Part shown: positions 1 to 17,800 of the stretch, one piece after another
Numbering within the stretch: position 1 is the stretch's first letter
How the letters are laid out: each line of letters opens with the position of its first letter
NCBI GenBank assembly: GCA_044870765.1
Contig: JBIOZG010000003.1
Location: 1-21,763, forward strand
Direction: 5' to 3'
DNA: 21,763 nt
DNA from: Nitrososphaeraceae archaeon
Lineage (GTDB): Archaea > Thermoproteota > Nitrososphaeria > Nitrososphaerales > Nitrososphaeraceae
Notes under the pieces: model-generated
The model's input: the letters and a program-made list of their open reading frames with translations, nothing else
Databases searched by the model: none
Told to the model about the DNA's origin: nothing
Translations under genes and position numbers: made by a program

Positions 1-792
1 ACCGAGAGTATCGTATCCTATAAACTTGAGAGTGGTAGTTGTGCTGATGGGAATAGGACCTGTATATAATGTACTTGATGATGAAGGAGTGTCTCCGTTA
101 GTGGTATAGTAGATAGCGTCAAGGTCACCAGCGGTAGATGATAATGTTACCAATTGAGACGTTGCAAATGTACCACTCGTTGGTGAAGCAGTAACTGTTG
201 GGCCGATAGTGTCGGCTAGTGCATTTTCACAGTCTATTAGAGTATCCTCTGAGGGATTATAGTCAGTGACTAGGTCCGGGCCATGACCGCAGTCGAATGT
301 ATCTTTACCGGGGCCACCAGTCATTGTATCATTCGCATTTCCACCATTTAAAATATCGTCACCCTTACCACCATCTAAAACATCCTTACCATTTTGGCCG
401 TTAAGAGTATCATCTCCTCCACATCCAAATAAGTGGTCTTCACCATTACCACCATTAATTGTCTCACCATCATCAGTTCCATAAATGGTATCAGATGAAC
501 CAGTTCCTGCTGGAACAGGGAACGAACCCGGACAGGATGTACTAACAGTGACGGTAAGAGAGAAGGAATCAGATGGCGGACTTCCGGATTTGTCGCTTTG
601 AGCAAATGCAACATTCGGAATTAAGGGGAAGAAAGCAGATTCAGGACTTCCAGTCTTGAAAGTTTGAGCAAAGGCATCACTATGACCTTTATGACTATAA
701 AATAGAGGGGACGAAATAGCAGGAGAAATCGCAAGAGAAAACGAAATAATGAAGATAAATAAAAGTGAGGAAATCCGATTAGCTGAAATCAA
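1..792 (-). CDS. Secreted RTX (hemolysin-type Ca2+-binding) repeat protein with a chitobiase/beta-hexosaminidase C-terminal-like (Fn3-associated) domain; 3' end outside window
   Basis: Not in the ORF track; translated by hand from TTG at 792 and open to position 1. MISANRISSLLFIFIISFSLAISPA (signal peptide), then nonapeptide repeats GGNGEDHLF, GCGGDDTLN, GQNGKDVLD, GGKGDDILN, GGNANDTMT, GGPGKDTFD, then PTVTASPTSGTF...IYYTTNGDTPSSSSTLYTGPIPISTTTTLKFIGYD. Start codon uncertain. Confidence 0.85.
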   Translation of the reverse strand, partial: MISANRISSLLFIFIISFSLAISPAISSPLFYSHKGHSDAFAQTFKTGSPESAFFPLIPNVAFAQSDKSGSPPSDSFSLTVTVSTSCPGSFPVPAGTGSSDTIYGTDDGETINGGNGEDHLFGCGGDDTLNGQNGKDVLDGGKGDDILNGGNANDTMTGGPGKDTFDCGHGPDLVTDYNPSEDTLIDCENALADTIGPTVTASPTSGTFATSQLVTLSSTAGDLDAIYYTTNGDTPSSSSTLYTGPIPISTTTTLKFIGYDTLG

Positions 793-1070: not shown

Positions 1071-2537
1071 TTATGGTACCAATCTTACTACAAAATTATG
1101 CTTACCAATTTCCATTGGATATGTCATCGGAGAACTGCAGGTATTGAATGATTCGTCATCTAGCGCACACTCAAACTCATAATCATTTGGACCCTCTTCC
1201 TCAAAAGCTTGGGATGTCTCGTTCGCCTGAGCCGAGAATCTAAAGGTTACTTTCTGCGGAACAATCAGGTCATCTGGAGATAAATTGTTACCTGCCTGAT
1301 CCACTGCTGAATCAATGACTACATCCGGCTCCAATATAGGACAATTAATCGTGCCAGTAGCATTATTGTCTGCACCACTGTCGCAAGTATCAGAGACCGG
1401 TGGAGGACAGGCTACGTTAATCATGCTGTTAGTCGTGCCAGTAGCATTATTGTCTGCACCACTGTCGCAAGTATCAGAGACCGGTGTTGTAGTAGGAGCA
1501 CAGCCTTCATTACTGATAGAGGCAATAGTGCCATCAGTACTATTGTCTGCACCAATGTCACATGTTTCAGATGCTGGTGGTGAAGTAGTTGCATTTGTAT
1601 TTGTATTAGCATCAGTAGTATTGGCAATATTATTTGTACTAGTGTCAGTGGAATTGGTATTAGTATCAATATTTGTACTAGTGTCAGTAATAATGGCATT
1701 AATGTTAGTGTCAGGAGCACAACCTTCATCGCTGACAGTCGCAATCATGCCGTCAGCATTGCCTTCTACGTTATTGCCACATGTTTCAGGAATTTGAGCG
1801 TTCTCAGTTTCTTGTTTTAGGTCCACCAGGTTAGAAACAATTCCCGGATCCGTTGTTTCATCATTAATTACATTTTCTAAGATAGTTTGATCACTAATTA
1901 TCTTATCTAGTAGAGTGAATTCTGTGCCATCGGTTTCAGAGTCGGTTTTTTCATCTCGTTTTTCATCATCTTTTTCTTTCTTGTCATTAGATGTTTCTTT
2001 CTTATCATCAGTTACTTGATCATCTGTATCATCGGTTGTTTCTTTTTCATTGCACTTTTGGTCGGTTGTTTCATCGGTTGTTTCATCGGTTGTTTCATCG
2101 GTTGTTTCATCGGTTGTTTCATCGGTTGTTTCATCGGTTGTTTCATCGGTTGTTTCTTTTTCCTTACATTTTTGGTCAACTGTATCATCAGTTATTTTTT
2201 CGTCGGTTGTTTCGTCGGTTGTTTCATCGGTTGTTTCGTCGGTTGTTTCATCGGTTGTTTCGTCGGTTGTTTCGTCGGTTGTTTCGTCGGTTGTTTCATC
2301 GGTTGTTTCGTCGGTTGTTTCGTCGGTTTTATCATCGGTTGTATCATCGGTTGTTTCGTCGTCGCCAGAGTCGTCTTTCTCGTCGTCGCCAGAGTCTCCG
2401 CCGTCACTGTCCGATGATTCTTCTCCTAAGGCCAGAGAGATAACTGTAAAGCCAGGAATCCCATTTTTAATGAATAAAGGATTTAAAGCAATAGAGCTAA
2501 AAATAGCAATTAGAAATATTATAGAAAATTTGTTCAC
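1071..2537 (-). CDS. Secreted/surface protein with acidic TTDE low-complexity region, Cys-pair repeats and C-terminal Ig-like domain
   Basis: 488 aa. Hydrophobic N-terminus, (TTDE)n arrays, four E/D-T-C...C repeats, C-terminal beta-rich segment VTFRFSA...YEFECALDDESFNTCSSPMTY...HNFVVR. Confidence 0.85.
   Translation of the reverse strand: MNKFSIIFLIAIFSSIALNPLFIKNGIPGFTVISLALGEESSDSDGGDSGDDEKDDSGDDETTDDTTDDKTDETTDETTDETTDETTDETTDETTDETTDETTDETTDETTDEKITDDTVDQKCKEKETTDETTDETTDETTDETTDETTDETTDETTDQKCNEKETTDDTDDQVTDDKKETSNDKKEKDDEKRDEKTDSETDGTEFTLLDKIISDQTILENVINDETTDPGIVSNLVDLKQETENAQIPETCGNNVEGNADGMIATVSDEGCAPDTNINAIITDTSTNIDTNTNSTDTSTNNIANTTDANTNTNATTSPPASETCDIGADNSTDGTIASISNEGCAPTTTPVSDTCDSGADNNATGTTNSMINVACPPPVSDTCDSGADNNATGTINCPILEPDVVIDSAVDQAGNNLSPDDLIVPQKVTFRFSAQANETSQAFEEEGPNDYEFECALDDESFNTCSSPMTYPMEIGKHNFVVRLVP
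1349..1486. repeat. 54-bp exact direct repeat (1349-1402 and 1433-1486; period 84 bp) encoding PVSDTCDSGADNNATGT
   Basis: tcgtgccagtagcattattgtctgcaccactgtcgcaagtatcagagaccggtg occurs twice. Confidence 0.9.
2062..2156. repeat. 12-bp coding tandem repeat, block 2 (TTDE)
   Basis: Seven identical ttcatcggttgt units (2070-2153) plus partial flanks. Confidence 0.95.
2199..2360. repeat. 12-bp coding tandem repeat, block 1 (TTDE/TTDD)
   Basis: Ten ttc(g/a)tcggttgt units (2199-2318) followed by about three degenerate units. Confidence 0.95.
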
Positions 2538-2703
2538 TCTTTAGTTTAATAAAAATCAGTTGTTTAAACTTTTTGAAATCCTTTTATAGCTATTGATCTG
2601 AGAAAAGTTTTATTTCTTTGTAATGAATTAATTCTGACACCAAAATTAACAGTGAATGATCTTGAATATCAATTTTGCAAAATCTATTAATTTTCTACCA
2701 TGA

Positions 2704-3456
2704 TTGTGTATGACAGAAACAATTTTAAATAAATATATTTATGCCATGATATTGGAGAAATCTGAATTAGCCTCAAGAGCAAAAAAGTATAGGTACTTCC
2801 TAGCCTCATTGTTCTTGCTTGTCTGTTTGATGTCATTGTTGGTATCCATAAAGTCTCAAGAGGTCCCGACAGAGAATCAAGCGGATGAGACTCACTCTAA
2901 TCAAAATCCAATTTCATTAGCTGTGATTAAAGAATATTCTGAGATACTAGGAGTGGTATTAGAAGCAGCGGTTGTTGTGCTTTTGTTGAAGACTGTGAAA
3001 GATTTTGCAGAATTAGCGAAGGTAAGCAAATTACAGACTGAAGTAAGGTTTAGACCATGGGTTGGGCCAAGTGGTGGATTTGAGTTTTTGCGAGAGGATG
3101 ATAACAAAAAGCAGTACTCTATAGCAATGAAGAATTTCGGAGAAGTTCCTGCATCAAATGTAACAGTAACCTGTACTATCTCAGACACAAAACCACAGAA
3201 ATCGAAACCTATGGAGGATTCTACAATTGATAATAATCAATTTCACATAGGGCCTCTTTTGCCCGGAATGGAAAAGAGATATTGGGTCTTTATAGAAAAC
3301 GAAAGATACAGAAAAACAATGGAAGGAACCTCAAACACATTCATTTTCATTTACTTTTCATATGTATTCTCTGGTGGCAAAAGCGGATACGGTATGATAA
3401 GTCAACTGGACAGTAAGACTAGCAATTTCATTCATAGGGAAATGTGGATAGATTAA
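2704..3456 (+). CDS. Hypothetical membrane protein (about two TM segments plus soluble beta-rich C-terminal domain)
   Basis: 250 aa. Hydrophobic YFLASLFLLVCLMSLLVSI and ILGVVLEAAVVVLLL, then RPWVG...KNFGEVPASNV. True start may be ATG 2710 or 2746. Confidence 0.75.
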   Translation: MCMTETILNKYIYAMILEKSELASRAKKYRYFLASLFLLVCLMSLLVSIKSQEVPTENQADETHSNQNPISLAVIKEYSEILGVVLEAAVVVLLLKTVKDFAELAKVSKLQTEVRFRPWVGPSGGFEFLREDDNKKQYSIAMKNFGEVPASNVTVTCTISDTKPQKSKPMEDSTIDNNQFHIGPLLPGMEKRYWVFIENERYRKTMEGTSNTFIFIYFSYVFSGGKSGYGMISQLDSKTSNFIHREMWID

Positions 3457-3571
3457 TCGGTTATTTCAAAATGGTGGTTAAGAATAAATTCCATCTCATT
3501 AGCCAGGATGGTAGTGAAGCATAAAAGACGTCCACAAATAGGCTTGTACACAGGAGTCTAAATATACTATG

Positions 3572-3579
3572 TTTATATA
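3572..3579 (+). promoter_or_regulatory. Putative archaeal TATA box for the 3602 peptide gene
   Basis: TTTATATA 23-30 nt upstream of ATG 3602. Confidence 0.55.
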
Positions 3580-3601
3580 CTATAATATTAAATCGATATC
3601 T

Positions 3602-3817
3602 ATGTCACAAAATAAAATTTGGATGGCACTTACCATAATTGGAGGATTATTCCTTTTGATTGGCGTGCAAAGTATGGCATACGCACAGATGCCAAATGAT
3701 ACGTCCATGATGGGAAATGCAACAAATGCAACTGGCTGGATGGGAAACGCGACTAATGCAACCAGTGCAGGCAATATGACTGGAAATATTTCTGGTTGTG
3801 CCGATAGAGGCTGTTAG
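3602..3817 (+). CDS. Small secreted peptide precursor, N-x-S/T rich, with C-terminal CADRGC
   Basis: 71 aa from ATG 3602 (track starts at 3569, overlapping the TATA box). Signal peptide ending AYA-Q, MGNATNAT twice, ends TGNISGCADRGC. Confidence 0.8.
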   Translation: MSQNKIWMALTIIGGLFLLIGVQSMAYAQMPNDTSMMGNATNATGWMGNATNATSAGNMTGNISGCADRGC

Positions 3818-3848
3818 TCTAACAGTAGACACAACTACATGAGTTTTG

Positions 3849-5190
3849 ATGTCTAAAAAAAATTTTTTTTTTAACAAGTAATTCTAGTAAAATAATTTCT
3901 GTTTTCTTTTTAGTGATTCTTGCAACACTTGTTATTGAGAACGTAGATTATATCGTTGCAGACTTTATAGTAACATTCAACACATCATCAGCAGGAATTA
4001 TTTTGTTTGTCTTTATATCTGTCGCTTACATACTGGGACAAACCATTTTAATGAAATTCATGAATTCTAGTAGTAGTGCCATAAAGTCAAGATCTATTCT
4101 TATCGCAACTTTACACAGAGCTGTATCAATAGTACAGTACGTACTAGCTGCCAACGTAATTCTGATAATTATTCAGATATTTCTTTTCTCAAGATATTCG
4201 ACTTTTAATTTATTGTTTGTTACTTTTATTAGTAATTTTTTTACTGCGTCTCTTCTTGTCATATTCGCATTAAGTTTCCTATCATGGTATAAAAACAAGA
4301 AACAAAGTATAGGAATCTTACTGTATGCTCTTGCTTTTTTAATCCTTGCCGTATCTGAAGTGGTATCTGGTTCAGGTTCCGCATACTTGCTCTCTCAAAA
4401 GGATCAATGGATTACGCCTACGTCGGAGATTAAATTCAGTGATTTTCCGGATGGGACTTTTTTTGATATTTTCTTCTCATTTTATCGTTATATTGACTAC
4501 TCATCATTCCTATTAGTGCTAATTGCCAGTGCGATATTGCTATATCATTACAGCAAGAAAACTAGTAACCCAAAAATAATATTAATTATTGCATTACCAA
4601 TTTTAGGTTACACGAGTTCAATACTTGATGCACTCCACATACTTAGTGCAGATACAAATCCCAATCTCTTCTATTATTATATCTACATAGCACTAGTTTC
4701 AGCATCAGTAGGTATCCTCTTTGCCTTTTCGTTTTGGATTGTTTCAAAGAAATTGCCTGAAAGTCCTGTCAAAACCTTTCTAAAAATAACTGCTTATGGA
4801 TTTGTTCTTTTGTATTTTTCAAACAACATAAGCGTGACCATTGCCGCATATCCTCCGTTCGGCGTTAATTCCCTTTCGTTACTATCACTTTCGTCCTACT
4901 TTGTCTTGTTTGGCTTATACTCATCTGCCCTGTCTCTCTCTCAGGACTTAACTTTACGTCAACACTTGAGATCTTTGGCGAAAAATGACAATAATTTACT
5001 TTCAAGTATTGGAACCGCTCAAATGGAGTCGGAGGTTAAAAGAGCGGTGGGAGAACTTAAGGATGTAGCAGATGAACACGAAAAGGAATTAGCAGAAAAA
5101 TCAGGAATTGAAACACCGGTACCTGAATCAGAAATCGAAGACTATTTGAAACAAGTTATTGAAGAGGTTGCTAAAACTAGAAAAAAATGA
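3849..5190 (+). CDS. Polytopic (~10 TM) membrane protein with helical cytoplasmic tail; putative sensor/receptor; 5' end frameshifted in an A8T10 tract
   Basis: Track ORF 3913..5190 begins inside a TM helix. Removing one base from the tract at 3855-3872 joins ATG 3849 in frame (MSKKNFFLTSNSSKIISVFFLVILATL). About ten hydrophobic segments, then SQDLTLRQHLR...LLSSIGTAQMESEVKRAV...IEDYLKQVIEEV. Confidence 0.8.
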
Positions 5191-5246
5191 ATAAATGATT
5201 TGCATTGTTTGTTCCCGATAGACATGAGTAAAGGTTACAAGTCCCA

Positions 5247-5621
5247 TTAAAGGTAATCCTTTACGTAACTTGAAATAATATGCTGTATCGCAGACTCAAT
5301 TATTTTTCCATGGTCTGCATCTACTTCCGTGCTGATTAAAAGTAAATGTTCATCTTGCAATGGCAAAGTGATTTGTTTAACCTTTTCATATTCTTCCATG
5401 GCGTATCTTGCTTTGCCAATTCTATCTGCCAGGGTATTATGAAGTCTCCATCTTTGGAGTGTAATTAGGTTTGCTTTTTTGATTTCTTCATCGGTTAGGA
5501 GGCTTTTGATACCATCTCTGAGTCCACCGCTTATTATGTCGCCGGTTTTATCACAAATTCCAACAAAACGCACCTTTGGATCAAGTTCAAGCACATCATT
5601 GCAAAGTTTTTGAAAATCCAT
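5247..5621 (-). CDS. Roadblock/LC7-like (profilin-like fold; DUF6659-like) small protein
   Basis: 124 aa from ATG 5621. LCNDVLELDPKVRFVGICDKTGDIISGG...IGKARYAMEEYEKVKQITLPL...LLLISTE fits the helix, beta-hairpin, helix, three-strand pattern. A minus-strand TATA favours 5621 over 5663. Confidence 0.75.
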   Translation of the reverse strand: MDFQKLCNDVLELDPKVRFVGICDKTGDIISGGLRDGIKSLLTDEEIKKANLITLQRWRLHNTLADRIGKARYAMEEYEKVKQITLPLQDEHLLLISTEVDADHGKIIESAIQHIISSYVKDYL

Positions 5622-5641
5622 ATCGAATTCATTATAGTGAC

Positions 5642-5699
5642 TATTTAAAATACTATACTGCATATATCCATGCGCAAACTAAAATTAGACACCTTTATA
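5642..5699. promoter_or_regulatory. Divergent promoter region with two TATA boxes
   Basis: TTTAAATA on minus (5649-5642), 21-28 nt before ATG 5621; TTTATA on plus (5694-5699), 26-31 nt before ATG 5725. Confidence 0.55.
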
Positions 5700-5724
5700 C
5701 CTCCGGCGCGGAATTTATGGAAAC

Positions 5725-6597
5725 ATGACTAAATGCATCGCTTTCCACTCATATAAGGGAGGCACCGGCAAATCAACCATCAGCTCAAACCTTTCAGCCA
5801 CGCTGGCAAGAAAAGGATTGACGGCCGTCTTACTGGATCTTGATGTCTACGCTCCGAGTCTCCAAGATTACTTCCAATGGCAACCTCAAAAATCAATAAA
5901 TGACTATCTCTTTGAAAATGCCACTGTTGAGGAGGTAATACACGATTTAACTCCGGTTTTAAACAAATTTCCATCTAATAATGGTGAGCAATCTGATTCA
6001 AAAGGAAAGCTATTGGTAGCATTTTCTAGTACGTCAAAAGACGAAATATACAAGCTTGATGGTGCAGTAAGGCAAGAAGGTTCCAAGATACAATTATTAC
6101 GAAAATTTCTAATGTTAAGAGAAGAGATTGTTTCTAAGTATAATGCAGATTTTATTATAATTGACACAAGTCCCGGTATAAGGTATTGGTCTATCAATTC
6201 TCTTGCCATTGCAGACACAATTCTTCTTTCCCTAAAGCTAGACGGTATAGATCTCAAAGGAACCCGCTTGCTCGCCAAGGAAATTTATGACAGCCTGACG
6301 AAGCTTGGAACTAAATCATATTTGCTTTTGAATAGAGCCGCGGGGTATTGTTTGCCCCCTAATCTGTCCGGTGAAAATAATTCCTCCAATCAAGAATTAT
6401 ACAAAACTACAGTAGACAATCAGAGTACAGTAATTTCTAAACTTAGTGCAGACATTAGTATGGATACAATACTTTCGATTCCCTGTTATTGCGATATCCA
6501 ATTTGATAGTAATGAATTTTTGACAGCGTTAAGATATCCCGATCATCCGTTTGCAGGTAAGATTGATGCACTTATTGAACAACTTAAAAAAATTTAG
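5725..6597 (+). CDS. MinD/ParA family ATPase
   Basis: Deviant Walker A SYKGGTGKST, switch I LLDLD, Walker B IIIDTSPG, LLLNR. Confidence 0.92.
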   Translation: MTKCIAFHSYKGGTGKSTISSNLSATLARKGLTAVLLDLDVYAPSLQDYFQWQPQKSINDYLFENATVEEVIHDLTPVLNKFPSNNGEQSDSKGKLLVAFSSTSKDEIYKLDGAVRQEGSKIQLLRKFLMLREEIVSKYNADFIIIDTSPGIRYWSINSLAIADTILLSLKLDGIDLKGTRLLAKEIYDSLTKLGTKSYLLLNRAAGYCLPPNLSGENNSSNQELYKTTVDNQSTVISKLSADISMDTILSIPCYCDIQFDSNEFLTALRYPDHPFAGKIDALIEQLKKI

Positions 6598-6641
6598 AGG
6601 AAAATTTAAAAAATCGAGGCCACTCAAGATGAATCAATATA

Positions 6642-8150
6642 ATGCCTGAATTAAGTATACCAGGGCTTTCAAGCTTGGTAGGACAAGCAGCAACTGAAAA
6701 GTTCGATTCTGGAATAATATTACTCATGAGTCCTCCTGGAGGAGGCAAAACGCTCTTCTGTAGGCAGATGATTATAGAGAGCCTGCAAAATGGATCTGCC
6801 TGTATATATATTAATTCGAGTATGACCCGCAAGGAATATCAAAATCTCTTTGACACTATAACTGATGAAAAAATTGACAAACTGAAATTTCTGAATCCCT
6901 ATTTAGTATCCACTAGTAATAAAGAATCAGATCCGTCAGCTAGTATAAACGAACCCAAGCTCTCAGCTACTCTTCAAGAGATACAGAATACAATAGATCA
7001 ATGGTCCTCTGTTACCAATACAAACACAGAAACGACTCAGGAATCTACATCTTCTCTAAATGACCATACAAAGTATGCCATAGTCCTTGATTCTCTGACA
7101 CATATGTTTACCCTATTTGAGGAAGACAAAGTATTGAAGTTTGTAAACGCACTATCATTCCTTATTAAAGAATTAGAAGCCACCGCACTTATTACAATGT
7201 CGGGTACTCAATCTAGTAATGGAGAAATTCTGAACAAGCTGAGTTCAATATTTGACATTGTCGTTGAGATAGAAGCTCAAGAAGATTCAGATAAGATAAA
7301 GCGAAAACTAAAATTAGTATCAATCAAGGGAGGAGGTAGCAAATCAGCCTCAGCCCCTTTCAATATAGAAGAAGACGGCAAATTGAAATTTGAATCAGAA
7401 GCAAGCGCAAAATCAAAATTATCTATATGTGGTCTTTGTAAGGCACCCATTTTAGAAGAACCGGAGTATTATCTAGATATGCCCTTCCATCACAACCATG
7501 TAAGTATTTACATGAAGCTTGCCGGCGCCTTTGGTCAAGCACGTGTATCGGACGTTGGTCCTTCGGGGGTTATTGATGCTGCATTTTTCTTTGTAGATGT
7601 AGTGGGGTTATCAGACCCAGCTCTGTCGGTAAGAAGACAAATAGAAAAGATTGAGGCATTAAATGATATGATAGGTCATTGCGATACCTTCAAAAAAGCA
7701 TCTGACAAACGAGTTCTGCCCACAGGTGATGGTATGGCAATAGGTTTTATGTTAAGTCCTGAATCTCCGCTTCAACTGGGAATCGATTTGCATCAGGCTT
7801 TAAAAAAGTATAACTCTCACACCAATAAACAAGACGGATCATTTCTCGATGTTAGAATCGGTCTCGCTTCAGGATCAGTCTTTATTGTTAATGATGTTAA
7901 TTCTAACCAGAATATTTGGGGACCAGGTATAATTTTTGCGAGAAGAGTCATGGATGTTGGGGACGGAGGTCATATTTTGTTAGCAGGACCACTAGCCGAA
8001 TCCTTATTGGCATTGGATGACAAGTACAGAAGTATTGTCAACCTACTTGGTGATTTTCAGGTAAAGCATGGCCAGATAATAAAGATATATTCAGCATATT
8101 CTCCAAATGAATTTGGCAATTCTGCAATACCCGGACGTTTCAAATCATAA
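6642..8150 (+). CDS. KaiC/RAD55-like RecA-superfamily ATPase fused to a Zn finger and a class III adenylate/guanylate cyclase domain
   Basis: Walker A SPPGGGKT, Walker B IVLDSLT, KaiC-like SSIFDIVVEI...RKLKLVSIKG; CGLC-x16-HHNH; cyclase motifs FFFVDVVGLS, PTGDGM, VRIGLASGSV, NIWGPGIIFARRVMD, GHILL, VKHG. Confidence 0.9.
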   Translation: MPELSIPGLSSLVGQAATEKFDSGIILLMSPPGGGKTLFCRQMIIESLQNGSACIYINSSMTRKEYQNLFDTITDEKIDKLKFLNPYLVSTSNKESDPSASINEPKLSATLQEIQNTIDQWSSVTNTNTETTQESTSSLNDHTKYAIVLDSLTHMFTLFEEDKVLKFVNALSFLIKELEATALITMSGTQSSNGEILNKLSSIFDIVVEIEAQEDSDKIKRKLKLVSIKGGGSKSASAPFNIEEDGKLKFESEASAKSKLSICGLCKAPILEEPEYYLDMPFHHNHVSIYMKLAGAFGQARVSDVGPSGVIDAAFFFVDVVGLSDPALSVRRQIEKIEALNDMIGHCDTFKKASDKRVLPTGDGMAIGFMLSPESPLQLGIDLHQALKKYNSHTNKQDGSFLDVRIGLASGSVFIVNDVNSNQNIWGPGIIFARRVMDVGDGGHILLAGPLAESLLALDDKYRSIVNLLGDFQVKHGQIIKIYSAYSPNEFGNSAIPGRFKS

Positions 8151-8244
8151 TACTAGTTGCTAGTATATGATATTGATACTGCAAAATAGACCTTTAGTAG
8201 ACTATAAAAGAATCCCGATAAAAGAACAAAACATTTGTAAGTCC

Positions 8245-11746: not shown

Positions 11747-13114
11747 TCATGTTAATTTAGACAATATTTCAAATGAGGCTAGTCTAAAAGCAGAAATACC
11801 CGTCCTGAAAGGATAAGCACCGCCACCCTTGAGAGTTCTTGGATTTAACCATTCGTAGAAAATTCTGTCGTGATTAGCATTGTTGTTAGGATTAGAGTAC
11901 AGTAAATTTGAAAGTAAAATAGTACATTCACTAATTTGTCCAAAACGAAATCTGGTTAGCAACTCGATTGCTGTTATCCACGGCCAGTGAGTGTAATTAT
12001 GATATTCGTTTGATTGTAGAATCCAAGGGCCAGTTTTTTGAAGCGGCTTTTCTGTTACCAATGGGATGTCTTTAACCCAAATTCTTTTTCGTAGTGATTC
12101 TAGTGCTAGTATCATTCTTTTCTGAATTTTTTCATAATAATATCTTTGATTTAACGATTCTTTTTTTTCTGGTTCAGGACTAATCTTTTGCAAATTGTTA
12201 TTGTTATTGTTATTGGTAACCAACGACGTATCAATTAGCTCCTCGGTCATGGCGAATACATAAAAAATAATATCTTGATAAAGAATCTCTGACGAGCCAT
12301 TCCTGGTAGTTTTACCGGAGTCAATATTGACATAGCATTTACTTTTTTCAGACCACATTTTGGATTCGATGGAATTTATGAGACGTGCCGCGATTGATTG
12401 TATTCTTCGTGCATCTTCTTTTTTGCCAACTAGATTTAATAAATTAGCAAAGCCGGACAAGCCCAATAACCAGCAGCCTTGACTATAGACTACGTTACCA
12501 TCACGCAGAACAGTATCCATCCAATCCTCATTGTACTCCTGTTCAAGCAACCCGTCACTATCTTCATCCCTTGAAAGAAGATAATCTACACTTCGAAAAA
12601 GGTACGGTAGTATGAATGAAATCATTTCGGAAGTTTGCCCAGATTTATTTTTACTTTTACCATCATTTTGATTTATCATTTGCACGAGAATCCAGGAGGA
12701 TACATAGATCATTAATGCGGTAGAATCAATATCAGGATTAAGAGCATAAATCTCTGAAAAGTTATCATAGATTGTAGTGGGAAGCGCACCGCAAAAATTC
12801 TTGATGGTTTCCTTGCTGGCTCTTAACGGAGTAAATTCAGTCTTTGGAGAACCTCTTCCGTAAATTAGATTGTTAGAATCACTTCCTATTTGATTCTTCC
12901 ATATGTGCTTTAATTGACTAAATACTTCAATGTGATTACCCGTAACAAATTGGTCTCTTAGTATATACGCTGCATCCCTGCACCAGACTGCCTTATAGTA
13001 ATCTCCAGGTTCTGTGCTTTGTGTGATATATTTGTCAGTACTAGCCAAAAAGTTCGCTAGGGAACTCACTGTCTTGCCCTGTACATTAATCCCATCCATC
13101 TCTGCAACTTTCAA
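11747..13114 (-). CDS. Six-hairpin (alpha/alpha)6 glycosidase, amylo-alpha-1,6-glucosidase/GDE C-terminal-like
   Basis: YYKAVWCRDAAY, DIDST, DEDSDGLLEQ...EDWMDT, YHNYTHWPW, FYEWLNP. Exact GH family not assignable by eye. Start TTG 13114 or ATG 13099. Confidence 0.8.
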   Translation of the reverse strand: MKVAEMDGINVQGKTVSSLANFLASTDKYITQSTEPGDYYKAVWCRDAAYILRDQFVTGNHIEVFSQLKHIWKNQIGSDSNNLIYGRGSPKTEFTPLRASKETIKNFCGALPTTIYDNFSEIYALNPDIDSTALMIYVSSWILVQMINQNDGKSKNKSGQTSEMISFILPYLFRSVDYLLSRDEDSDGLLEQEYNEDWMDTVLRDGNVVYSQGCWLLGLSGFANLLNLVGKKEDARRIQSIAARLINSIESKMWSEKSKCYVNIDSGKTTRNGSSEILYQDIIFYVFAMTEELIDTSLVTNNNNNNNLQKISPEPEKKESLNQRYYYEKIQKRMILALESLRKRIWVKDIPLVTEKPLQKTGPWILQSNEYHNYTHWPWITAIELLTRFRFGQISECTILLSNLLYSNPNNNANHDRIFYEWLNPRTLKGGGAYPFRTGISAFRLASFEILSKLT

Positions 13115-13204
13115 GTCTTTGCTGTGCTGACATTAGTGTAGCTTATTAATTATACTATTGTCGTGGCAACTCCTACAAGCCTTGCAGACTAAATTAGATT
13201 TGAT

Positions 13205-14353
13205 TTATGATGTCACGCGGCTGGCAAGTAAATTCTTAAGACCGTCCTTGAAACGCTTTTTGCCGAATTTCTTAACAGAATTGCTCAAGTGTAGTCGTTG
13301 GTGAAGACTTGCGTTCATGGATCGCATAATAATTTTGGCCGCTTCTTTGGAATTATTATACCTAAGACTTTCAGGCACAAATTCTGTGTTACCACCAAAG
13401 CTGGGTACTACAGGTACTAACCCTGCGGACATTGCCTCAGCAACACACATTCCAAATGGCTCTCCTACTGTTGGATGGAATAACACTTTTGACTTTGCAA
13501 AGACATGTAACAAATCATTTATGTCGACATTTGTTTTCAGTTCGACCATGTCGGAAAGTTCGTATTTCTTGACAAGTTTTTGAAGATAACTATAGTAAGG
13601 ATAATATGATTTTGAAAGATTCCCAACAATAGACATCTCAAACTTAATGTTCATGTTTTTAAGAACTTTGGCGACTTCTAGGGCCAGCTCAATGTTTTTA
13701 TCGGGATTATATCGTCCGAGAACCACTATTCTATTCTCTCTGGAATTAGAAGTGACTACCCGACTAAAAAATTCAATATCAACTGGAGGGTAAATTATGA
13801 GAGGTTGTGCATATGGGTAATACAATTGAACTGCTTTTGAACTAAATACAGAATTGGTTATTACCGTGGAATTATTGATCATTTGGTTATATACCGCAAG
13901 AGCTTTTGAACGAAGTTTATCCAGAGATGTATCTTTGTAATCGGACATATGTAAATAGTTTCGTAAAACAGTATCGTACTTTAAATTGTGAATCAACTCT
14001 GGAACAAGTGGATAATGACAATATGTGATAAGCATTTGTCTATTGGCAGCAAGCATATGGGATGGAAGGATATCTCCATGTGCATTCATGATTATATCAT
14101 ACTCATTATTATCATATTGCACATTGGAGTCCCCTAACAAAGAATTGATATCCGTTTTAATGACAGTATTGACAAATTTCCGCAGTTTGGAAATTCCAAA
14201 AATTCTTTCAAGTTCAGTCCAGTTCGGTTTAGTAAAAGTAACTAGATCTACTGAAAAATCCAGTTCCTTTAGTGTCTCAAGTGACGCTGCGGCCAAACGC
14301 TCGGCACCGCCCCCGGCGTTAAGGTCTTCGTGAATTAACTTGACCCTTTTCAT
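13205..14353 (-). CDS. GT4 family glycosyltransferase (ALG11/ALG2-like motifs)
   Basis: GGGAERL, YCHYP, NSVFS, IIYPPVD, GRYNPDKN, EPFGMCVAEAMSAG (E-x7-E). Confidence 0.92.
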   Translation of the reverse strand: MKRVKLIHEDLNAGGGAERLAAASLETLKELDFSVDLVTFTKPNWTELERIFGISKLRKFVNTVIKTDINSLLGDSNVQYDNNEYDIIMNAHGDILPSHMLAANRQMLITYCHYPLVPELIHNLKYDTVLRNYLHMSDYKDTSLDKLRSKALAVYNQMINNSTVITNSVFSSKAVQLYYPYAQPLIIYPPVDIEFFSRVVTSNSRENRIVVLGRYNPDKNIELALEVAKVLKNMNIKFEMSIVGNLSKSYYPYYSYLQKLVKKYELSDMVELKTNVDINDLLHVFAKSKVLFHPTVGEPFGMCVAEAMSAGLVPVVPSFGGNTEFVPESLRYNNSKEAAKIIMRSMNASLHQRLHLSNSVKKFGKKRFKDGLKNLLASRVTS

Positions 14354-14702
14354 CTCACTAGTTTAACTTCATATTTTATTAGCAGGTTCACTAATTTAAT
14401 TCTTAAGTAGTATGTCCCACTGAATAGTACATGGAAGTTCTCAAACAATCTAAATTCCTTATTGAAAATTATCGATGTTCCCTGTGTCGACTTTACTTTA
14501 AAAGCCTTGGAGAGATGCAAAAGCATATGTTAAAGAGCCATATGCTTAAACTAAATAACTTGCAAGTTTCGCCATCCTGATTCAACCAGTTATGATTCCG
14601 TACCTTTAACATTTGAAATTTTGATCTGCTAACTAGCACTTAACCCATTTCGAATAATATAGTTGATATAATAATTGATACTCATTCAAAAAATATCAAT
14701 TC

Positions 14703-15116
14703 CTATTTTTTCAATATTTTCTCAATGGTTTGAGCAAGATATTGCATATGAACTGGCTTTTCCATAAAATTATCGTATCTAATATTTATTAAATCCTCGC
14801 CGTTTAACTCAAAAGCGCTGATAATAATCACCTTAATATCGTGGTTAATCTTGCGAATTCTGCGTATCAGTTCAATACCCGAGATTCCGGGCATCCTTAC
14901 GTCTGTTATGATTATCGAGTATCTTTGTGGTCTTCGATGTATTTCTTCAAGAGCTTTCAAAGGATCAAGAAACGAGGTTACACCGTATCCTTCCTTTTTG
15001 AGAAAATCACTAAACAAATTCAGTATGTCCGCATCATCGTCAATAACAAGTATTCGTGCAGGTGATTCACTAGAGCGAGACGATGTCATTTTTGTTGTCA
15101 AACTATTATCAGGCAC
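14703..15116 (-). CDS. Stand-alone response regulator receiver protein
   Basis: ILVIDDD, ITDVRMPGISG, ISA, EKP; no output domain. Confidence 0.93.
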   Translation of the reverse strand: MPDNSLTTKMTSSRSSESPARILVIDDDADILNLFSDFLKKEGYGVTSFLDPLKALEEIHRRPQRYSIIITDVRMPGISGIELIRRIRKINHDIKVIIISAFELNGEDLINIRYDNFMEKPVHMQYLAQTIEKILKK

Positions 15117-15490
15117 AATCTCTTAACTGCACACTAATTTCAAGCTATTTGCATCACTATCCTCTTTTGGAGTTCTGTTGGTTAGTTTGTACTAAAGAAT
15201 AATCCGATCCTGAAAAAAATTTTGATTCTAAAATAGAAGCCCTGATACTCTATCATATTATGATGATTAATAATTAATAAATATAAACATACATTGTGAT
15301 TCAGCCATTCAAAATTGATCGAAATATAATTTACGATGGGCATCTCATCCTATGGGCTAATACCGAATATGATTAGTTGTCAATCTATGTTCAGCATGTT
15401 TCAGCTTGCTTTCATTCATTTTTATGAAACATATCTCCTCAAACCAAAATTGTTGAAATCTTAATAAAAGATGTCAAAGATATATAATTA

Positions 15491-15637
15491 ATGCCAAGAG
15501 GAGTAAAGAAGGGTCTAGACACAAAAAAGTTTGACAGGTGTGTTACTAAAGTCAAGCGCAAATCAGGGAAGAAAGTCAATCCGTACGCAGTCTGTAACGC
15601 AAGCATGTCAGGCAAAACGAGGCGCAGAAGAAAATAG
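15491..15637 (+). CDS. Small highly basic two-cysteine protein
   Basis: Below the track cutoff. MPRGVKKGLDTKKFDRCVTKVKRKSGKKVNPYAVCNASMSGKTRRRRK* (48 aa, 18 K/R). TTAATAAA at 15461-15468. Locally higher GC than its flanks. Confidence 0.7.
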   Translation: MPRGVKKGLDTKKFDRCVTKVKRKSGKKVNPYAVCNASMSGKTRRRRK

Positions 15638-15847
15638 GTACAATTTAAATATTTGTTCCTATTTAAAGAACATACATTCTACATTTTTCCTCCAACTTTT
15701 ATATTATCTGAACGTATGACACAATATTCGAGATAATATTCTGACAGTCATAAAACAATTGCATATATAAACGAATTTCAAAGCAGACGAAGTAATCTCT
15801 AGGTTTACTTTGAATCTAAACTTTCTATGAAGAAATTTTATTTGTCT

Positions 15848-15855
15848 AAAAAAAA
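15848..15855 (-). terminator. Oligo-T terminator candidate for 15877..16107
   Basis: A8 on plus (T8 on minus) about 22 nt past the stop codon. Confidence 0.4.
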
Positions 15856-15876
15856 TGTTATTGTGGATAACAAATA

Positions 15877-16107
15877 TTAGTCTTTTCTATAGTTTTGAGC
15901 GTCCTCTTTGGTGATAGAAAACCAAACTTTGTGTCCGTCAAATCGCTCGACAAGGCTTTTTGGTAAGTAAAATTTGTCTTTATCTACAACTCCTTTTTTC
16001 GTAACCACAATTTCAGGTTCGACTTCGTGCACTTCGCCCAAATCATAGTCGTTCGTACCTCGTGCTTCTTTTTTTAAGATATCATCCCAGTTAGTTATGT
16101 TGTTCAT
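15877..16107 (-). CDS. Small PRC-barrel-like protein
   Basis: KKEARGTNDYDLGEVHEV...IVVTKKG...FYLPKSLVERFDGHKVWF resembles the PRC-barrel pattern; TTATA about 25 nt upstream. Confidence 0.75.
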   Translation of the reverse strand: MNNITNWDDILKKEARGTNDYDLGEVHEVEPEIVVTKKGVVDKDKFYLPKSLVERFDGHKVWFSITKEDAQNYRKD

Positions 16108-16301
16108 GATACATAACGCTCAACATTCGATATAAGCATTCAAGGGACGTATCAACGCGAGCCAATTAATTCAATCGGATCTTACTATGTTCACATTTTA
16201 AGATATTTAGATATGATAAAATTAGATGGAGAAATAATCCCAAAATAAGAAACTTGAGAATTTCACATCGATATATAAAGTTTGTAGTACTAAATTATTT
16301 G

Positions 16302-16514
16302 ATGAAATCATATAGGAATTCAACTATCCGATTGACACTAATGATGTGTATGATCACGATAACTGGAATCTTTTCTAGCGCAGAATTTGTATCCGGTCAG
16401 CAAACAGTAGACTTGAAGACTCCAGGTGGCAATAAGGCATTTGGTGGAGATAACAAAGGAAGTGTATCGATTGTTCCCAAAGAACATACTGTTAATATAG
16501 TTGCAGAGCAATAA
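16302..16514 (+). CDS. Small secreted protein, possibly truncated
   Basis: 70 aa from ATG 16302 (TATATAAA at 16272-16279). Signal peptide, then a short beta-rich segment that ends abruptly. Confidence 0.55.
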   Translation: MKSYRNSTIRLTLMMCMITITGIFSSAEFVSGQQTVDLKTPGGNKAFGGDNKGSVSIVPKEHTVNIVAEQ

Positions 16515-16516
16515 CA

Positions 16517-16534
16517 TTTTCTTTTTTTTGTTTT
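16517..16534 (+). terminator. Oligo-T terminator candidate
   Basis: TTTTCTTTTTTTTGTTTT just after the stop at 16514. Confidence 0.55.
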
Positions 16535-16632
16535 ATTCTGTATTGATTGAAAGTTAAAATGATCATCTGATTTGACTGTTCCTAGTTACTGCTTTTATAT
16601 TTTGTTGATTATAATTCATCCGGTGTTGGGAC

Positions 16633-17616
16633 TTGAGCTCTATCCTCTCTTATAATAAGAACGAAGTTAGAGAAAACGGTTCTCTTGAAGATTTGGATGA
16701 AGGTTATAATGTTTGGGTCGATGTCATAAATCCGGATCAATCAGAACTTGATAAATTGGCAAAAAAATTTCACTTAAATGAGGAAGCCATTCAAACTTGC
16801 ATAAATAAATCAAAAAAGCCAGAAATTCGTCAACTAGAGAATCATACGTTTACTGTAATAGTAGACATGAAAAATAAAGATCCAGAGACTCTGCTTATAG
16901 AGGCCGTATACTTTTTTCTGGGTACAAATTGGTTAATAACAATTCATACGGCTGAGGTTGACATTAAGCTAATCGTTCAGAGACTCCTTAACATACAAAA
17001 TGAAACAATAAAGCAAACACGTATAGACGCTTTATATTATAATATACTGGCAGGTCTTGTTACCAAATATGAACAATTGCTTACGGCTCTCGAACTATCT
17101 GTAAATGAGTATCAGAGAAGGTCATTCGTACGCCCACTCCCAGAAATATTTGAAAGCATAGATATTTTATCAAGGCAAGCCATAATGCTACGCAGACAAT
17201 TTTGGTATGTAAGAAATATAATTAATTTTCTGCTGCATACAGAAAAGGACAAAGAAGATGTGAAATATGTAGAGATGGTGTATGACGATATGACGCAGTT
17301 GATTGATTTTGTGGAATCCTATGAGGGGACGATCAATTCAATTAGAGAGCTATACGTGGCCAAGGTATCACTCCAAATAAACGAAACTATGAGAATCCTC
17401 ACTATATTTACAGCCATATTACTCCCACTTGCACTAATTGCAGGTATATACGGAATGAATGGAATAGATTTGGAAAATATTACACAAGTACCCTTGGGCT
17501 TCATAGTCGTATTGGTAACTATGGCAATAATAGTAATTGGATTTGTTTTGTTTTTTGTCAAGAAAGGATGGATAGTTCTTAAAAGAGACAAGTCCAAGCA
17601 AAAACCAGAATCCTAA
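16633..17616 (+). CDS. corA: CorA family Mg2+/Co2+ transporter
   Basis: WVDVINP, LITIH, long helical stalk, NETMRILTIF...GIYGMN signature between two C-terminal TM helices. Confidence 0.95.
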   Translation: MSSILSYNKNEVRENGSLEDLDEGYNVWVDVINPDQSELDKLAKKFHLNEEAIQTCINKSKKPEIRQLENHTFTVIVDMKNKDPETLLIEAVYFFLGTNWLITIHTAEVDIKLIVQRLLNIQNETIKQTRIDALYYNILAGLVTKYEQLLTALELSVNEYQRRSFVRPLPEIFESIDILSRQAIMLRRQFWYVRNIINFLLHTEKDKEDVKYVEMVYDDMTQLIDFVESYEGTINSIRELYVAKVSLQINETMRILTIFTAILLPLALIAGIYGMNGIDLENITQVPLGFIVVLVTMAIIVIGFVLFFVKKGWIVLKRDKSKQKPES

Positions 17617-17800
17617 TAAATTATTTAGCAACGCTTACGTATATGCGGTAGATTATAATGTACTGCATATTGGATTTGGTTATTTAATGGCAAATTATTG
17701 GCAAACCCTAGGTTATCCGGAATTAAATTCAAAATGTGAATCATTATTTCGATTCGAAACAATACCAAACACGATTGGTTTAAATCGTATATTGAACTAG

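Follow-up and report, generated by a model that had tools for sequence, protein, structure and literature searches.

The stretch analysed (hereafter the window) comprises 21,763 nucleotides from a soil ammonia-oxidising archaeon of the Nitrososphaeraceae (GCA_044870765.1, contig JBIOZG010000003.1, positions 1 to 21,763). Between positions 3,602 and 8,150 it contains five contiguous genes, preceded by a possible accessory gene:

2704..3456 (+), 250-aa protein with two N-terminal hydrophobic helices and no Pfam match, possible accessory gene
3602..3817 (+), predicted secreted peptide precursor, 71 aa from the ATG shared with orthologues
3913..5190 (+), 425-aa membrane protein with 10 predicted transmembrane (TM) helices, here termed TM425
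5247..5663 (-), DUF6659 protein with a predicted Roadblock/LC7 fold, 124 aa if it starts at 5621
5725..6597 (+), ParA/MinD-type deviant Walker A ATPase, 290 aa
6642..7391 (+), KaiC/RecA-like ATPase domain (residues ~1-250) of a 502-aa KaiC-cyclase fusion encoded by 6642..8150 (+)
7428..7499 (+), linker of the fusion with C-x2-C...H-x2-H, a possible zinc knuckle
7554..8081 (+), class III nucleotidyl cyclase-like domain (residues ~305-480) of the fusion

The gaps between the five genes are 95, 56, 61 (or 103) and 44 bp, the alternative value reflecting the probable true start of the DUF6659 gene at Met15 (position 5621), where most relatives begin. The gene content and spacing given in a preliminary description of the locus, five genes separated by about 30-100 bp, are thus confirmed. 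That description erred, however, in presenting the peptide and membrane protein genes as convergent with the rest. These genes are co-directional with those of the MinD-like ATPase and KaiC-cyclase, and only the Roadblock-like gene is on the other strand.

Predicted properties of the encoded proteins

The peptide precursor has an N-terminal hydrophobic, signal-like helix ending AYA-Q, seven N-x-S/T sequons and a C-terminal T-G-N-I-S-G motif followed by C-x4-C. Contigs from RNA libraries cover the gene. TM425 has no Pfam or NCBIfam match. Hydropathy combined with the positive-inside rule, and a structural model, both indicate 10 TM helices with the N- and C-termini inside the cell, and an ~85-residue cytoplasmic helical tail. 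A Foldseek search of the PDB found nothing with E<=0.001, while the ESM Atlas returned only unnamed Nitrososphaerota clusters, consistent with a Nitrososphaerota-specific family. Across 63 TM425 proteins no Asp, Glu, His, Cys or Lys is conserved; the conserved positions are F, Y, W, G, P, L, A and S, together with Q75 and R349.

The protein described initially as Roadblock matches only DUF6659 by sequence (PF20364, 26.4 bits against a cut-off of 27), a family with 612 representatives in a 1.8-billion-protein library and about 10 paralogues in this genome. Its AlphaFold model (pLDDT 96), however, matches Roadblock/LC7, MglB and LAMTOR structures at TM scores of 0.64-0.75 (E about 2e-7), supporting the original assignment. 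The DUF6659 domain also occurs in histidine kinases (HisKA-HATPase), wHTH proteins and STAND NTPases, and at the C-terminus of TIR-, caspase- and trypsin-NACHT proteins; no REC fusion was found among the 19 proteins scanned.

The MinD-like ATPase matches AAA_31 (68.5 bits), with ParA and CbiA hits, and scores 73.3 bits against the NCBIfam KGGVGR-variant model, below its cut-off of 90. Its best PDB relatives, Soj, ParA and MinD, match only the N-terminal and Walker B regions. In 43 sequences K11, K16, D38, D40 and D147, which include the Walker A signature lysine and the switch aspartates, are invariant, as are C209, C254, C256 and H274.

The KaiC-cyclase matches KaiC (PF06745, 55.2 bits) over residues 24-246 and Guanylate_cyc (PF00211, 28.4 bits, cut-off 21.9) over residues 314-475. 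In an alignment of 51 sequences of 35-94% identity, G35 and K36 of the KaiC-like domain are invariant, and D150, S151 and R221 are present in 46, 51 and 50 sequences, respectively, while the catalytic Glu pair of KaiC aligns with S60-M61 and is therefore absent. The ‘Zn finger' of the preliminary description corresponds to C263-x2-C266...H283-x2-H286, in which these residues occur in 51, 44, 37 and 27 of the 51 sequences, respectively, and is thus only partly conserved. The closest PDB relative of the cyclase domain is Ma1120 (E 1.7e-5). Both metal-binding aspartates (D319 and D363) and R405, R434 and R435 are invariant. In contrast, comparisons that included the other 7 cyclase domains of the genome showed that the canonical base-specifying pair (Lys/Asp or Glu/Cys) and the transition-state Asn are lacking, with L359 (49 of 51) and N424 (50 of 51) at the base-specifying positions. 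The genome contains 9 cyclase-domain genes and 1 cNMP-binding-domain gene.

Two conserved gene pairs and their co-occurrence

Comparative genomics splits the locus into two pairs. The KaiC-cyclase fusion occurs in 182 of 238 Nitrososphaeraceae genomes, in 98 of the 116 of high quality and in 18 of 18 genera, and the MinD-like gene lies in the same locus in 33 of 40 loci from 14 genera other than that of the window (genus g1; other genera are numbered likewise). The window's own genome holds a second such pair at about 40% identity, and this paralogous type B pair is intact in 10 of 10 loci. The TM425 family occurs in 190 of the 238 genomes and is multi-copy. A matching peptide gene lies just upstream of 22 of 68 TM425-family ORFs, compared with 0 of 442 other ORFs of at least 250 aa in the same loci. 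Nine of the 22 are close g1 orthologues, while 13 come from g1 paralogues, g24, g36, g37, g38 and g39. Among g1 orthologues the peptide diverges faster than its neighbours, at 56-79% identity compared with 87-90% for the MinD-like ATPase.

The two pairs lie together in g1 and in 12 genomes of 8 other genera. TM425 is within 6.5 kb of KaiC-cyclase in 4 of the 40 loci from other genera, which were chosen without regard to it, and in 8 further loci that were found because both genes sat on one contig, and then confirmed. Gene order varies between loci (numbered with the prefix L): L116 has TM425>MinD>KaiC-cyclase with a 23-bp gap, L113 and L114 have KaiC-cyclase>TM425>MinD, and L095 has MinD>KaiC-cyclase>TM425. 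Tight, same-strand arrangements occur in g30, g36 and g39. Homologues of the 250-aa protein, which in g1 is syntenic upstream of the peptide gene, lie between TM425 and MinD in L109 (g34) and L115 (g38). In a quick tree, a clade of 16 peptide-linked TM425 proteins (SH-aLRT 98) holds 15 module-linked members from g1, g36 and g37, although five further module-linked TM425 genes (L087, L095, L109, L117 and L168) are scattered in the peptide-less part. The preliminary description would have been refuted had the two pairs never co-occurred; this is not what was observed. The enrichment is only modest, however, as TM425 reaches at least 7-8 scored copies per genome, such that some adjacency is expected by chance (a rough expectation of 0.9-1.7 of the 40 unbiased loci against 4 observed), and genomes of one family are not independent samples.

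By contrast, the Roadblock-like gene is near the module in only 1 of the 40 loci from other genera, about the chance rate (some 2.6 expected from roughly 10 copies per 2 Mb). Its subfamily does lie next to other TM425 genes in L118 and L137, and 2.4 kb from one in L142.

A possible membrane-to-cytoplasm signalling route

We propose, with a probability of roughly 0.5, that the locus joins the two conserved units into one signalling route. In this view the precursor is exported and cut after A-x-A, before Q, giving a mature peptide of ~42 residues with up to seven N-glycosylation sequons and a conserved G-x-I-S-G end, which would act on, or with, the 10-TM protein encoded directly downstream. 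As TM425 has no conserved catalytic-type residues, a receptor or scaffold is more likely than an enzyme or transporter, and it would expose its helical tail to the cytoplasm. There, the ParA/MinD-type ATPase, which should form an ATP-sandwich dimer and has a subfamily-specific 3-Cys/1-His site that may hold a metal or an Fe-S cluster, would work with the KaiC-cyclase. The KaiC-like domain keeps Walker A, Walker B and the arginine finger but lacks the catalytic Glu pair, and therefore probably acts as an ATP-dependent oligomerisation switch that brings the cyclase domains into the dimers they need for activity. The product would be a nucleotide messenger of unknown identity, although either domain of the fusion could be non-catalytic. 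The Roadblock-fold DUF6659 protein would be a lineage-specific adaptor or sensor attached to TM425 or to the ATPase. The gene identities, both pairings and the co-occurrence of the pairs are demonstrated by these data, whereas export, glycosylation, the ligand and receptor roles, all contacts between the proteins and enzymatic activity are inferred.

The preliminary interpretation, a ligand, receptor, NTPase switch and cyclase module, is therefore partly supported. The component identities, the pairings and their co-occurrence hold, but a Roadblock switch is not supported by gene linkage and no small GTPase partner is present, while a cNMP product is not established given the substitutions in the cyclase domain.

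Comparison with other systems indicates where the proposed route differs. In receptor-coupled class III cyclases, such as membrane-anchored bacterial adenylate cyclases and the mammalian GPCR/G-protein/adenylate cyclase, an extracellular cue, a polytopic membrane protein and a P-loop NTPase likewise stand between the outside and a class III cyclase domain that needs dimerisation, and the metal-binding Asp pair and the Arg are shared. Here, however, the membrane component is a separate protein with no fold match, the NTPases are a ParA/MinD ATPase and a KaiC-like domain rather than a Ras-like GTPase, and the base-specifying pair and transition-state Asn are missing. KaiC-like ATPases are regarded as archaeal signalling hubs, exemplified by ArlH/FlaH (Makarova, Galperin and Koonin 2017, cited in PMC5847659). 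The fusion likewise has a single RecA/KaiC-like domain with Walker A, Walker B and the arginine finger joined to a signalling output domain, and gives weak NCBIfam FlaH/ArlH matches. It differs in its cyclase partner, a fusion found named only in automatic JGI annotations, in the absent Glu pair and in its constant pairing with a MinD-like gene. As in Roadblock/MglB systems with small GTPases and the actinobacterial conservon (CvnA-D), a protein of predicted Roadblock/LC7 fold is encoded next to a P-loop NTPase and a membrane protein, but no Ras-like GTPase or histidine-kinase-like CvnA gene lies in the locus, the protein belongs to DUF6659 rather than Pfam Roadblock, and its linkage to the module is limited to one genus. 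Peptide pheromone systems of Gram-positive bacteria (AgrD/AgrB/AgrC type) share a small, fast-diverging precursor encoded immediately upstream of a polytopic membrane protein, in multiple cassettes per genome. The archaeal peptide, however, has a Sec-type signal and many sequons, TM425 lacks a kinase domain and conserved catalytic residues, and the output would be an ATPase-cyclase pair. NitrOD3, an output domain of Nitrososphaera response regulators (Galperin et al. 2018, PMC5847659), is, like DUF6659, a domain of about 120 residues in Nitrososphaera-type archaea that is related to Roadblock/LC7 and used in signal-transduction proteins. DUF6659, however, was found fused to HisKA-HATPase, wHTH and STAND NTPases, with no REC fusion among the 19 proteins scanned.

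It remains possible, although we consider it less likely, that two unrelated units merely lie next to each other, with the peptide-TM425 cassette serving as a cell-surface or competition device, such as a small glycopeptide with its membrane partner or an archaeocin-like peptide with an immunity protein, and the MinD-KaiC-cyclase pair as a purely cytoplasmic regulator with other inputs. Indeed, 36 of the 40 module loci in other genera lack TM425, type B pairs in g1 have none of the other three genes (0 of 10 loci), showing that the module clearly works without the cassette, and 39 of 40 TM425-centred loci have no KaiC-cyclase within 4 kb. The rapid divergence of the peptide fits pheromone-receptor or toxin-immunity pairs alike. 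This view sits less easily with the tight, same-strand arrangements in different orders, including TM425 inserted between KaiC-cyclase and MinD, with the clade that keeps the linkage across three genera, and with neighbourhoods rich in response-regulator genes.

A role for TM425 in processing, exporting or anchoring a peptide that acts elsewhere, in the manner of AgrB with AgrD, appears unlikely. The gene order is that of precursor-processing pairs and the G-x-I-S-G motif could be a recognition site, but the residue conservation argues against a protease or transpeptidase, and 46 of 68 family members have no such peptide gene upstream. An anti-virus system of the Pycsar or CBASS type, with the cyclase as sensor-generator, is very improbable. 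Pyrimidine cyclases also have non-canonical base-specifying residues, Pycsar cyclases being adenylate cyclase homologues with altered active sites (PMC10249747), and the occurrence of DUF6659 in NACHT proteins could be viewed in the same light. PADLOC, however, gave no Pycsar or CBASS hit for any of the five proteins, only weak PDC-M28B, mad8 and ZorD matches to the P-loop regions. No effector gene is adjacent, and the fusion is near-universal and syntenic rather than patchy like defence islands. On present evidence, the two conserved pairs of this ammonia-oxidising archaeon may form an outside-to-inside signalling route that appears new.

Gene content of the locus and properties of the encoded proteins

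The window, contig C3 of a 2.0-Mb, 96.7%-complete genome, contains the five adjacent genes listed in the preliminary description, and ORF listing together with profile searches confirmed each of them:

3602..3817 (+), peptide gene
3913..5190 (+), 425-aa membrane protein, here called TM425
5247..5663 (-), DUF6659 protein
5725..6597 (+), ParA/MinD-type ATPase
6642..8150 (+), 502-aa fusion of a KaiC-like ATPase and a class III cyclase domain (KaiC-cyclase)

The gaps between the genes are 44-103 bp. In contrast to the final statement of the preliminary description, which held the peptide/receptor pair to be convergent with the rest, four of the five genes share the + strand; only the DUF6659 gene is opposite, being convergent with TM425 and divergent from the MinD-like gene. 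Upstream of the peptide gene lies a 250-aa two-helix membrane protein (2704..3456, +), homologues of which are placed between TM425 and MinD in genera g34 (locus L109, 10065-10667) and g38 (locus L115, 2154-2753), and which may be a further component. Further upstream are a 488-aa extremely acidic secreted protein with long T-D-E-T repeats, repeated Cys-containing modules and no Pfam match (1071..2537, -) and, next to it, an RTX-repeat/chitobiase-C-domain protein (1..792, -), both of which are syntenic with the locus in relatives from the window's genus (g1). The downstream genes (11747..19489) comprise a GH116-like hydrolase, a GT4 glycosyltransferase, a stand-alone response regulator (14703..15116), CorA and a histidine kinase.

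The DUF6659 protein scores just under the Pfam cut-off of its family (26.4 bits against 27), and no match to Pfam Roadblock was reported. It has 612 representatives in a library of 1.8 billion proteins, most of which start at the query's Met15. An AlphaFold model built on 84 of these has a pLDDT of 96 and displays the order alpha-beta-beta-alpha-beta-beta-beta-alpha, and a Foldseek search matched the model to Roadblock/LC7 proteins, including 3kye, 7yh1, 6hjm (MglB) and 1veu (LAMTOR/p14-MP1), at TM 0.64-0.75. The earlier designation of this protein as Roadblock-like is therefore right at the level of the fold, although none of the five genes or the ten flanking ORFs scanned gave a small-GTPase Pfam hit. 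The domain also occurs at the C-terminus of large proteins after pentapeptide repeats (P0127, P0137, P0147 and P0220), at the N-terminus of HisKA-HATPase histidine kinases and after a winged helix-turn-helix, positions that are typical of sensor or interaction modules. Of the large proteins, three are STAND NTPases (P0137 trypsin-NTPase, P0147 TIR-NACHT and P0127 NACHT alone), while P0220 is a caspase-pentapeptide protein in which no NTPase domain was detected; the domain thus has a sensor-like position in what look like conflict or cell-death proteins. A Roadblock-related domain, NitrOD3, is described in Nitrososphaera response regulators (Galperin et al. 2018, PMC5847659).

TM425 is predicted to have ten helices, with both termini inside, and an ~85-residue helical cytoplasmic tail. 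It has no Pfam or NCBIfam match, and a Foldseek search of its model against the PDB returned nothing at E<=0.001. The best rows were rhodopsins and GPCRs at E 0.1-1 and TMq 0.24-0.34, which we regard as generic helical-bundle resemblance. The ESM Atlas returned only unnamed Nitrososphaerota clusters, the nearest named cluster, HisKA_7TM at 0.81, being below the threshold for a lead. Across 63 family members (20-89% identity) the conserved positions are aromatic, Gly or Pro, including a Y-P-P-x-G motif in the last outer loop, whereas no conserved acidic, His, Cys or Lys residue is present, which argues against an enzyme or an ion-coupled transporter.

The MinD-like protein displays the deviant Walker A motif KGGxGK[ST] with its signature lysine, both switch aspartates and the Walker B Asp (K11, G12, G13, G15, K16, D38, D40 and D147 are invariant in 43 sequences), and it matches AAA_31 (68.5 bits), ParA (46.2) and CbiA (38.7). 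It is, however, far below the NCBIfam cut-offs for MinD proper, scoring 43.6 bits against 201.75 for minD_arch and 30.1 against 212.9 for minD_bact, and no MinC or MinE gene is found in the locus. Three invariant cysteines and one invariant histidine (C209, C254, C256 and H274) are located in a C-terminal half that matches nothing in the PDB.

The N-terminal part of the fusion protein scores 55.2 bits against PF06745 (cut-off 26.6) over residues 24-246 and retains the Walker A motif GxxGxGK[ST] and the Walker B motif hhhhD, with G35 and K36 in 51 of 51 sequences, T or S at position 37 in 42, D150 in 46 and S151 in 51. The catalytic glutamate pair that follows the strand after Walker A in KaiC is absent: in a local alignment to KaiC (8zn5_B), which is weak on its own and is anchored by Walker A, the segment 'afees' aligns with 'nssmt', placing the pair over S60-M61, and columns 60 and 61 of the family alignment are S/N/T and L/I/F, never E. 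R221, a possible arginine finger conserved in 50 of 51 sequences, aligns with the Arg-rich segment of KaiC. The linker carries C263-x2-C266...H283-x2-H286, conserved in 51, 44, 37 and 27 of 51 sequences, respectively. The C-terminal domain scores 28.4 bits against PF00211 (cut-off 21.9) and was also recovered by a whole-genome search at 30.6 bits. Both metal-binding aspartates, D319 and D363, are present in 51 of 51 sequences and align with the F-x-D and G-D-G motifs of the genome's other cyclase domains. Canonical class III cyclases stabilize the transition state through an Asn and an Arg in the motif G-x-x-V-N-x-A-x-R, and select their base through a Lys/Asp pair (ATP) or a Glu/Cys pair (GTP). 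In the fusion protein the Arg is retained (R434 and R435 in 51 of 51), but no Asn is present in the corresponding segment, W-G-P-G-I-I-F-A-R-R, and in the alignment to Ma1120 'grnvamaarv' lies over 'gpgiifarrv'. The base-specifying positions are occupied by L359 (49 of 51) and N424 (50 of 51). By contrast, most of the genome's seven other cyclase domains have Lys at the first of these positions and keep an Asn in the transition-state segment.

Conservation of the two gene pairs

The MinD-like gene and the KaiC-cyclase gene form a family-wide module. The fusion was found in 182 of 238 Nitrososphaeraceae genomes at E<=1e-30, comprising 98 of 116 high-quality genomes and 18 of 18 genera, whereas only single-domain matches, and no fusion, appeared in the 24 genomes searched from 19 other families of the order. 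The gene is interrupted by in-frame stops in some genomes (one TAA in G194, contig C14, locus L109; TGA and TAG in G209, contig C70; TGA in G112, contig C9), which may be pseudogenes or assembly errors. In 40 loci from 14 other genera, chosen for the length of their contigs and for spread, a MinD-like gene lies in the locus in 33, mostly directly upstream on the same strand and sometimes divergent or downstream; the seven loci without it belong to g25, g31, g33 and one g37 genome. The window's own genome has a second pair (type B) on contig C25, at about 40% identity. The type B pair and the g29 pair (L003, 4319..2260; L070/L071; L108) are followed by a conserved trio, a 209-aa single-helix protein, a ~255-aa multi-helix membrane protein and a ~370-aa protein (clusters c8, c12 and c17), which looks like the older genomic context of the module.

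Other genes recur beside this module. Response-regulator genes flank it in 8 of the 40 loci from other genera. A ~360-aa domain family with no Pfam match (cluster c9; 17801..19489 (+) in the window, C22:15092-16129 and C54:51623-53737 elsewhere in the genome) lies beside it in 12 of the 40 (L083-L087, L096 and L102-L107, from g30, g32, g34 and g37), often accompanied by a small SCO4226-like protein. The same domain forms the N-terminus of the window's histidine kinase and, in the own genome, lies within 4 kb of two other cyclase-domain genes, on C22 and C54. It may be a sensor or nucleotide-binding domain tied to cyclases. Upstream membrane proteins in other genera, initially considered as possible distant TM425 relatives, proved to be a V-ATPase subunit I and an amino-acid permease-Usp fusion, and are thus ordinary neighbours.

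The peptide and TM425 genes form a recurrent cassette. TM425 is a multi-copy family found in 190 of 238 genomes, with at least 7-8 hits in the richest genomes, these counts being lower bounds. Inspection of upstream regions revealed small ORFs of the same design in many genera, with a hydrophobic N-terminal helix ending A-x-A|Q (or S|Q), repeats of N-x-T/S and a C-terminal G-x-I-S-(G) motif. When fixed criteria were then applied (40-120 aa, hydrophobic start, at least 2 sequons and G-x-[IV]-[SA] in the last 16 residues), such a gene lay upstream of 22 of 68 TM425-family ORFs and of 0 of 442 other ORFs of at least 250 aa in the same loci. Nine of the 22 are close orthologues of the window's locus, and 13 come from g1 paralogues, g24, g36, g37, g38 and g39. 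The criteria are conservative, as loci L130 and L131 carry the same design with the G-x-I-S motif further from the end. Among g1 orthologues the peptide diverges faster than its neighbours (56-79% identity, against 87-90% for MinD). Within the own genome a scan for further copies of the peptide family found only the window's peptide and one loose look-alike on C2, and the two TM425 paralogues on C32 have no such peptide upstream.

Six RNA libraries contained 24-44% of the sampled words of 3500-8200, and contigs from four of them were aligned to the locus. In two soil metatranscriptome runs from two studies (X17 and X18) contigs cover the peptide gene, DUF6659, MinD and KaiC-cyclase, and the summed contig depth over 3496-3943 is 46-154, against 0-25 in every other bin. 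As all four runs are contigs, depth is a poor measure of expression and cannot rank genes, and several of the contigs over the peptide gene end in sequencing adapters inside it; these data are thus only a weak hint that the peptide message is abundant. Likewise, the lack of cover of bins 3944-4615, inside TM425, in X17 and X18 is not evidence of silence. The two oligo-dT libraries (X15 and X16) cover everything evenly, intergenic DNA included, and may therefore hold DNA.

Linkage between the two pairs and to DUF6659

Within g1 the whole arrangement (250-aa gene, peptide, TM425, DUF6659, MinD, KaiC-cyclase) is kept in all 10 of 14 loci whose contigs reach that far, although these genomes are close relatives; one g1 relative (L054, G002 contig C41) has about 2 kb inserted between TM425 and DUF6659 (2298..4392). 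In the 40 loci from other genera, which were chosen without regard to TM425, this gene lies within 6.5 kb of KaiC-cyclase in four (L087, L095, L100 and L109). Comparison of the genomic hits for the two families gave eight more cases in which both lie on one contig, and retrieval of these loci confirmed all eight, making 12 genomes in 8 genera outside g1. The gene orders differ, as follows:

L116 (g39): TM425>MinD>KaiC-cyclase, with a 23-bp gap
L113 and L114 (g36): KaiC-cyclase>TM425>MinD
L095 (g30): MinD>KaiC-cyclase>TM425
L115 (g38) and L109 (g34): TM425>250-aa homologue>MinD>KaiC-cyclase
g37: divergent or 1-2.5 kb apart

In a quick maximum-likelihood tree of 63 TM425 proteins, one clade of 16 (SH-aLRT 98) holds 15 module-linked, peptide-associated members from g1, g36 and g37, with the g39 member in the next clade out.

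Against a functional coupling, 36 of the 40 loci chosen without regard to TM425 lack the gene, as do 10 of 10 type B pairs in g1, while 39 of 40 TM425-centred loci lack the module. Five linked TM425 genes are scattered in the peptide-less half of the tree. Furthermore, with a multi-copy family, a rough chance expectation for the 40 loci is 0.9-1.7, against four observed. The genomes compared all belong to one family and are not independent, and several counts are minimum values. The tallies of the fusion in the 238 family genomes and in the 24 genomes of other families, and that of TM425, include genomes flagged unpublished (G020, G034, G149-151, G191, G240 and G258), on which no other claim depends. 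A complex prediction with MinD, KaiC-cyclase and the TM425 tail (residues 338-425) as partner gave a median score of 0.44, but a control in which KaiC-cyclase was replaced scored 0.50, and this is no evidence either way. On balance, we put the probability that one TM425 lineage really works with the module at about one half.

The linkage of DUF6659 is narrower. The genome has about 10 paralogues, the closest of which, on C5, has no TM425, MinD or KaiC neighbour. Near the module DUF6659 was found in g1, including a diverged locus (L056, 52-64% identity) where it has flipped to the same strand as MinD, but in only 1 of the 40 loci from other genera (L082, which has no MinD), which is no more than chance. 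The window's copy does, however, belong to a subfamily sharing 40-56% identity, against 23-33% with the other copies compared, and members of this subfamily lie directly beside TM425 genes in L118 (convergent, as in the window) and L137 (73 bp downstream), and 2.4 kb from one in L142. Although post hoc, this observation suggests that DUF6659 partners with TM425 rather than with MinD.

A tentative signalling model and its significance

The preliminary description interpreted the locus as a ligand, receptor, NTPase switch and cyclase module, a reading that is partly supported by these data. In the model we favour, an exported, probably glycosylated peptide would act on a 10-TM receptor or scaffold, the cytoplasmic tail of which would engage the ParA/MinD-type ATPase and, in this genus, the Roadblock-fold adaptor as well. 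The ATPase would control assembly of the KaiC-like domain, which in this view binds ATP but probably hydrolyses it poorly, and assembly would pair the cyclase domains, which then make a nucleotide messenger whose base the sequence does not specify. While the identities of the genes, the two pairings and their co-occurrence rest on the sequence comparisons, every contact and activity in this chain, including peptide export, glycosylation and the oligomeric state of the KaiC-like domain, is inferred. Cyclic-nucleotide signalling is plausible in this organism, as the genome encodes 9 class III cyclase-domain proteins, all above the Pfam cut-off, and one cNMP-binding-domain protein (C4:16939-17199). 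As there is only one of the latter, most receptors of the messengers must be of another kind. A role in Pycsar- or CBASS-type defence was rejected, as PADLOC gave no such hit for any of the five proteins.

Parts of this system have been recorded before. Automatic annotation already labels the fusion 'FlaH/class 3 adenylate cyclase', and one genomics paper lists class III cyclases among Nitrososphaeraceae-specific clusters (PMC13577086). Literature searches returned no description of the MinD-KaiC-cyclase module, the peptide-TM425 cassette or their linkage, although they did not extend to the most relevant paper, that of Makarova et al. (2017, mBio) on KaiC-like hubs. A 2023 review of archaeal second messengers (PMC10249747) names no class III cyclase in archaea and reports that the archaeal 'class IV' candidates are phosphatases.

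Nitrososphaeraceae are the main archaeal nitrifiers of soils, yet almost nothing is known about how they sense their surroundings or each other. The KaiC-cyclase is a conserved candidate enzyme that could be expressed and assayed directly, and the MinD-like protein with three invariant Cys and one His, and DUF6659 as a predicted Roadblock-fold signalling domain, are two further families whose roles could now be tested. The peptide and 10-TM cassettes provide a concrete, testable candidate for peptide-based communication in archaea. It remains possible, though we consider it unlikely, that soil ammonia-oxidising archaea use secreted N-glycosylated peptides as cell-to-cell or self signals, each read by a cognate 10-TM receptor of a family found only in Nitrososphaerota, and that one receptor lineage signals through a ParA/MinD ATPase, possibly gated by redox or metal, to a KaiC-gated cyclase that makes a non-canonical cyclic nucleotide. 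This would be the first peptide-sensing pathway and the first class III cyclase pathway described in archaea.
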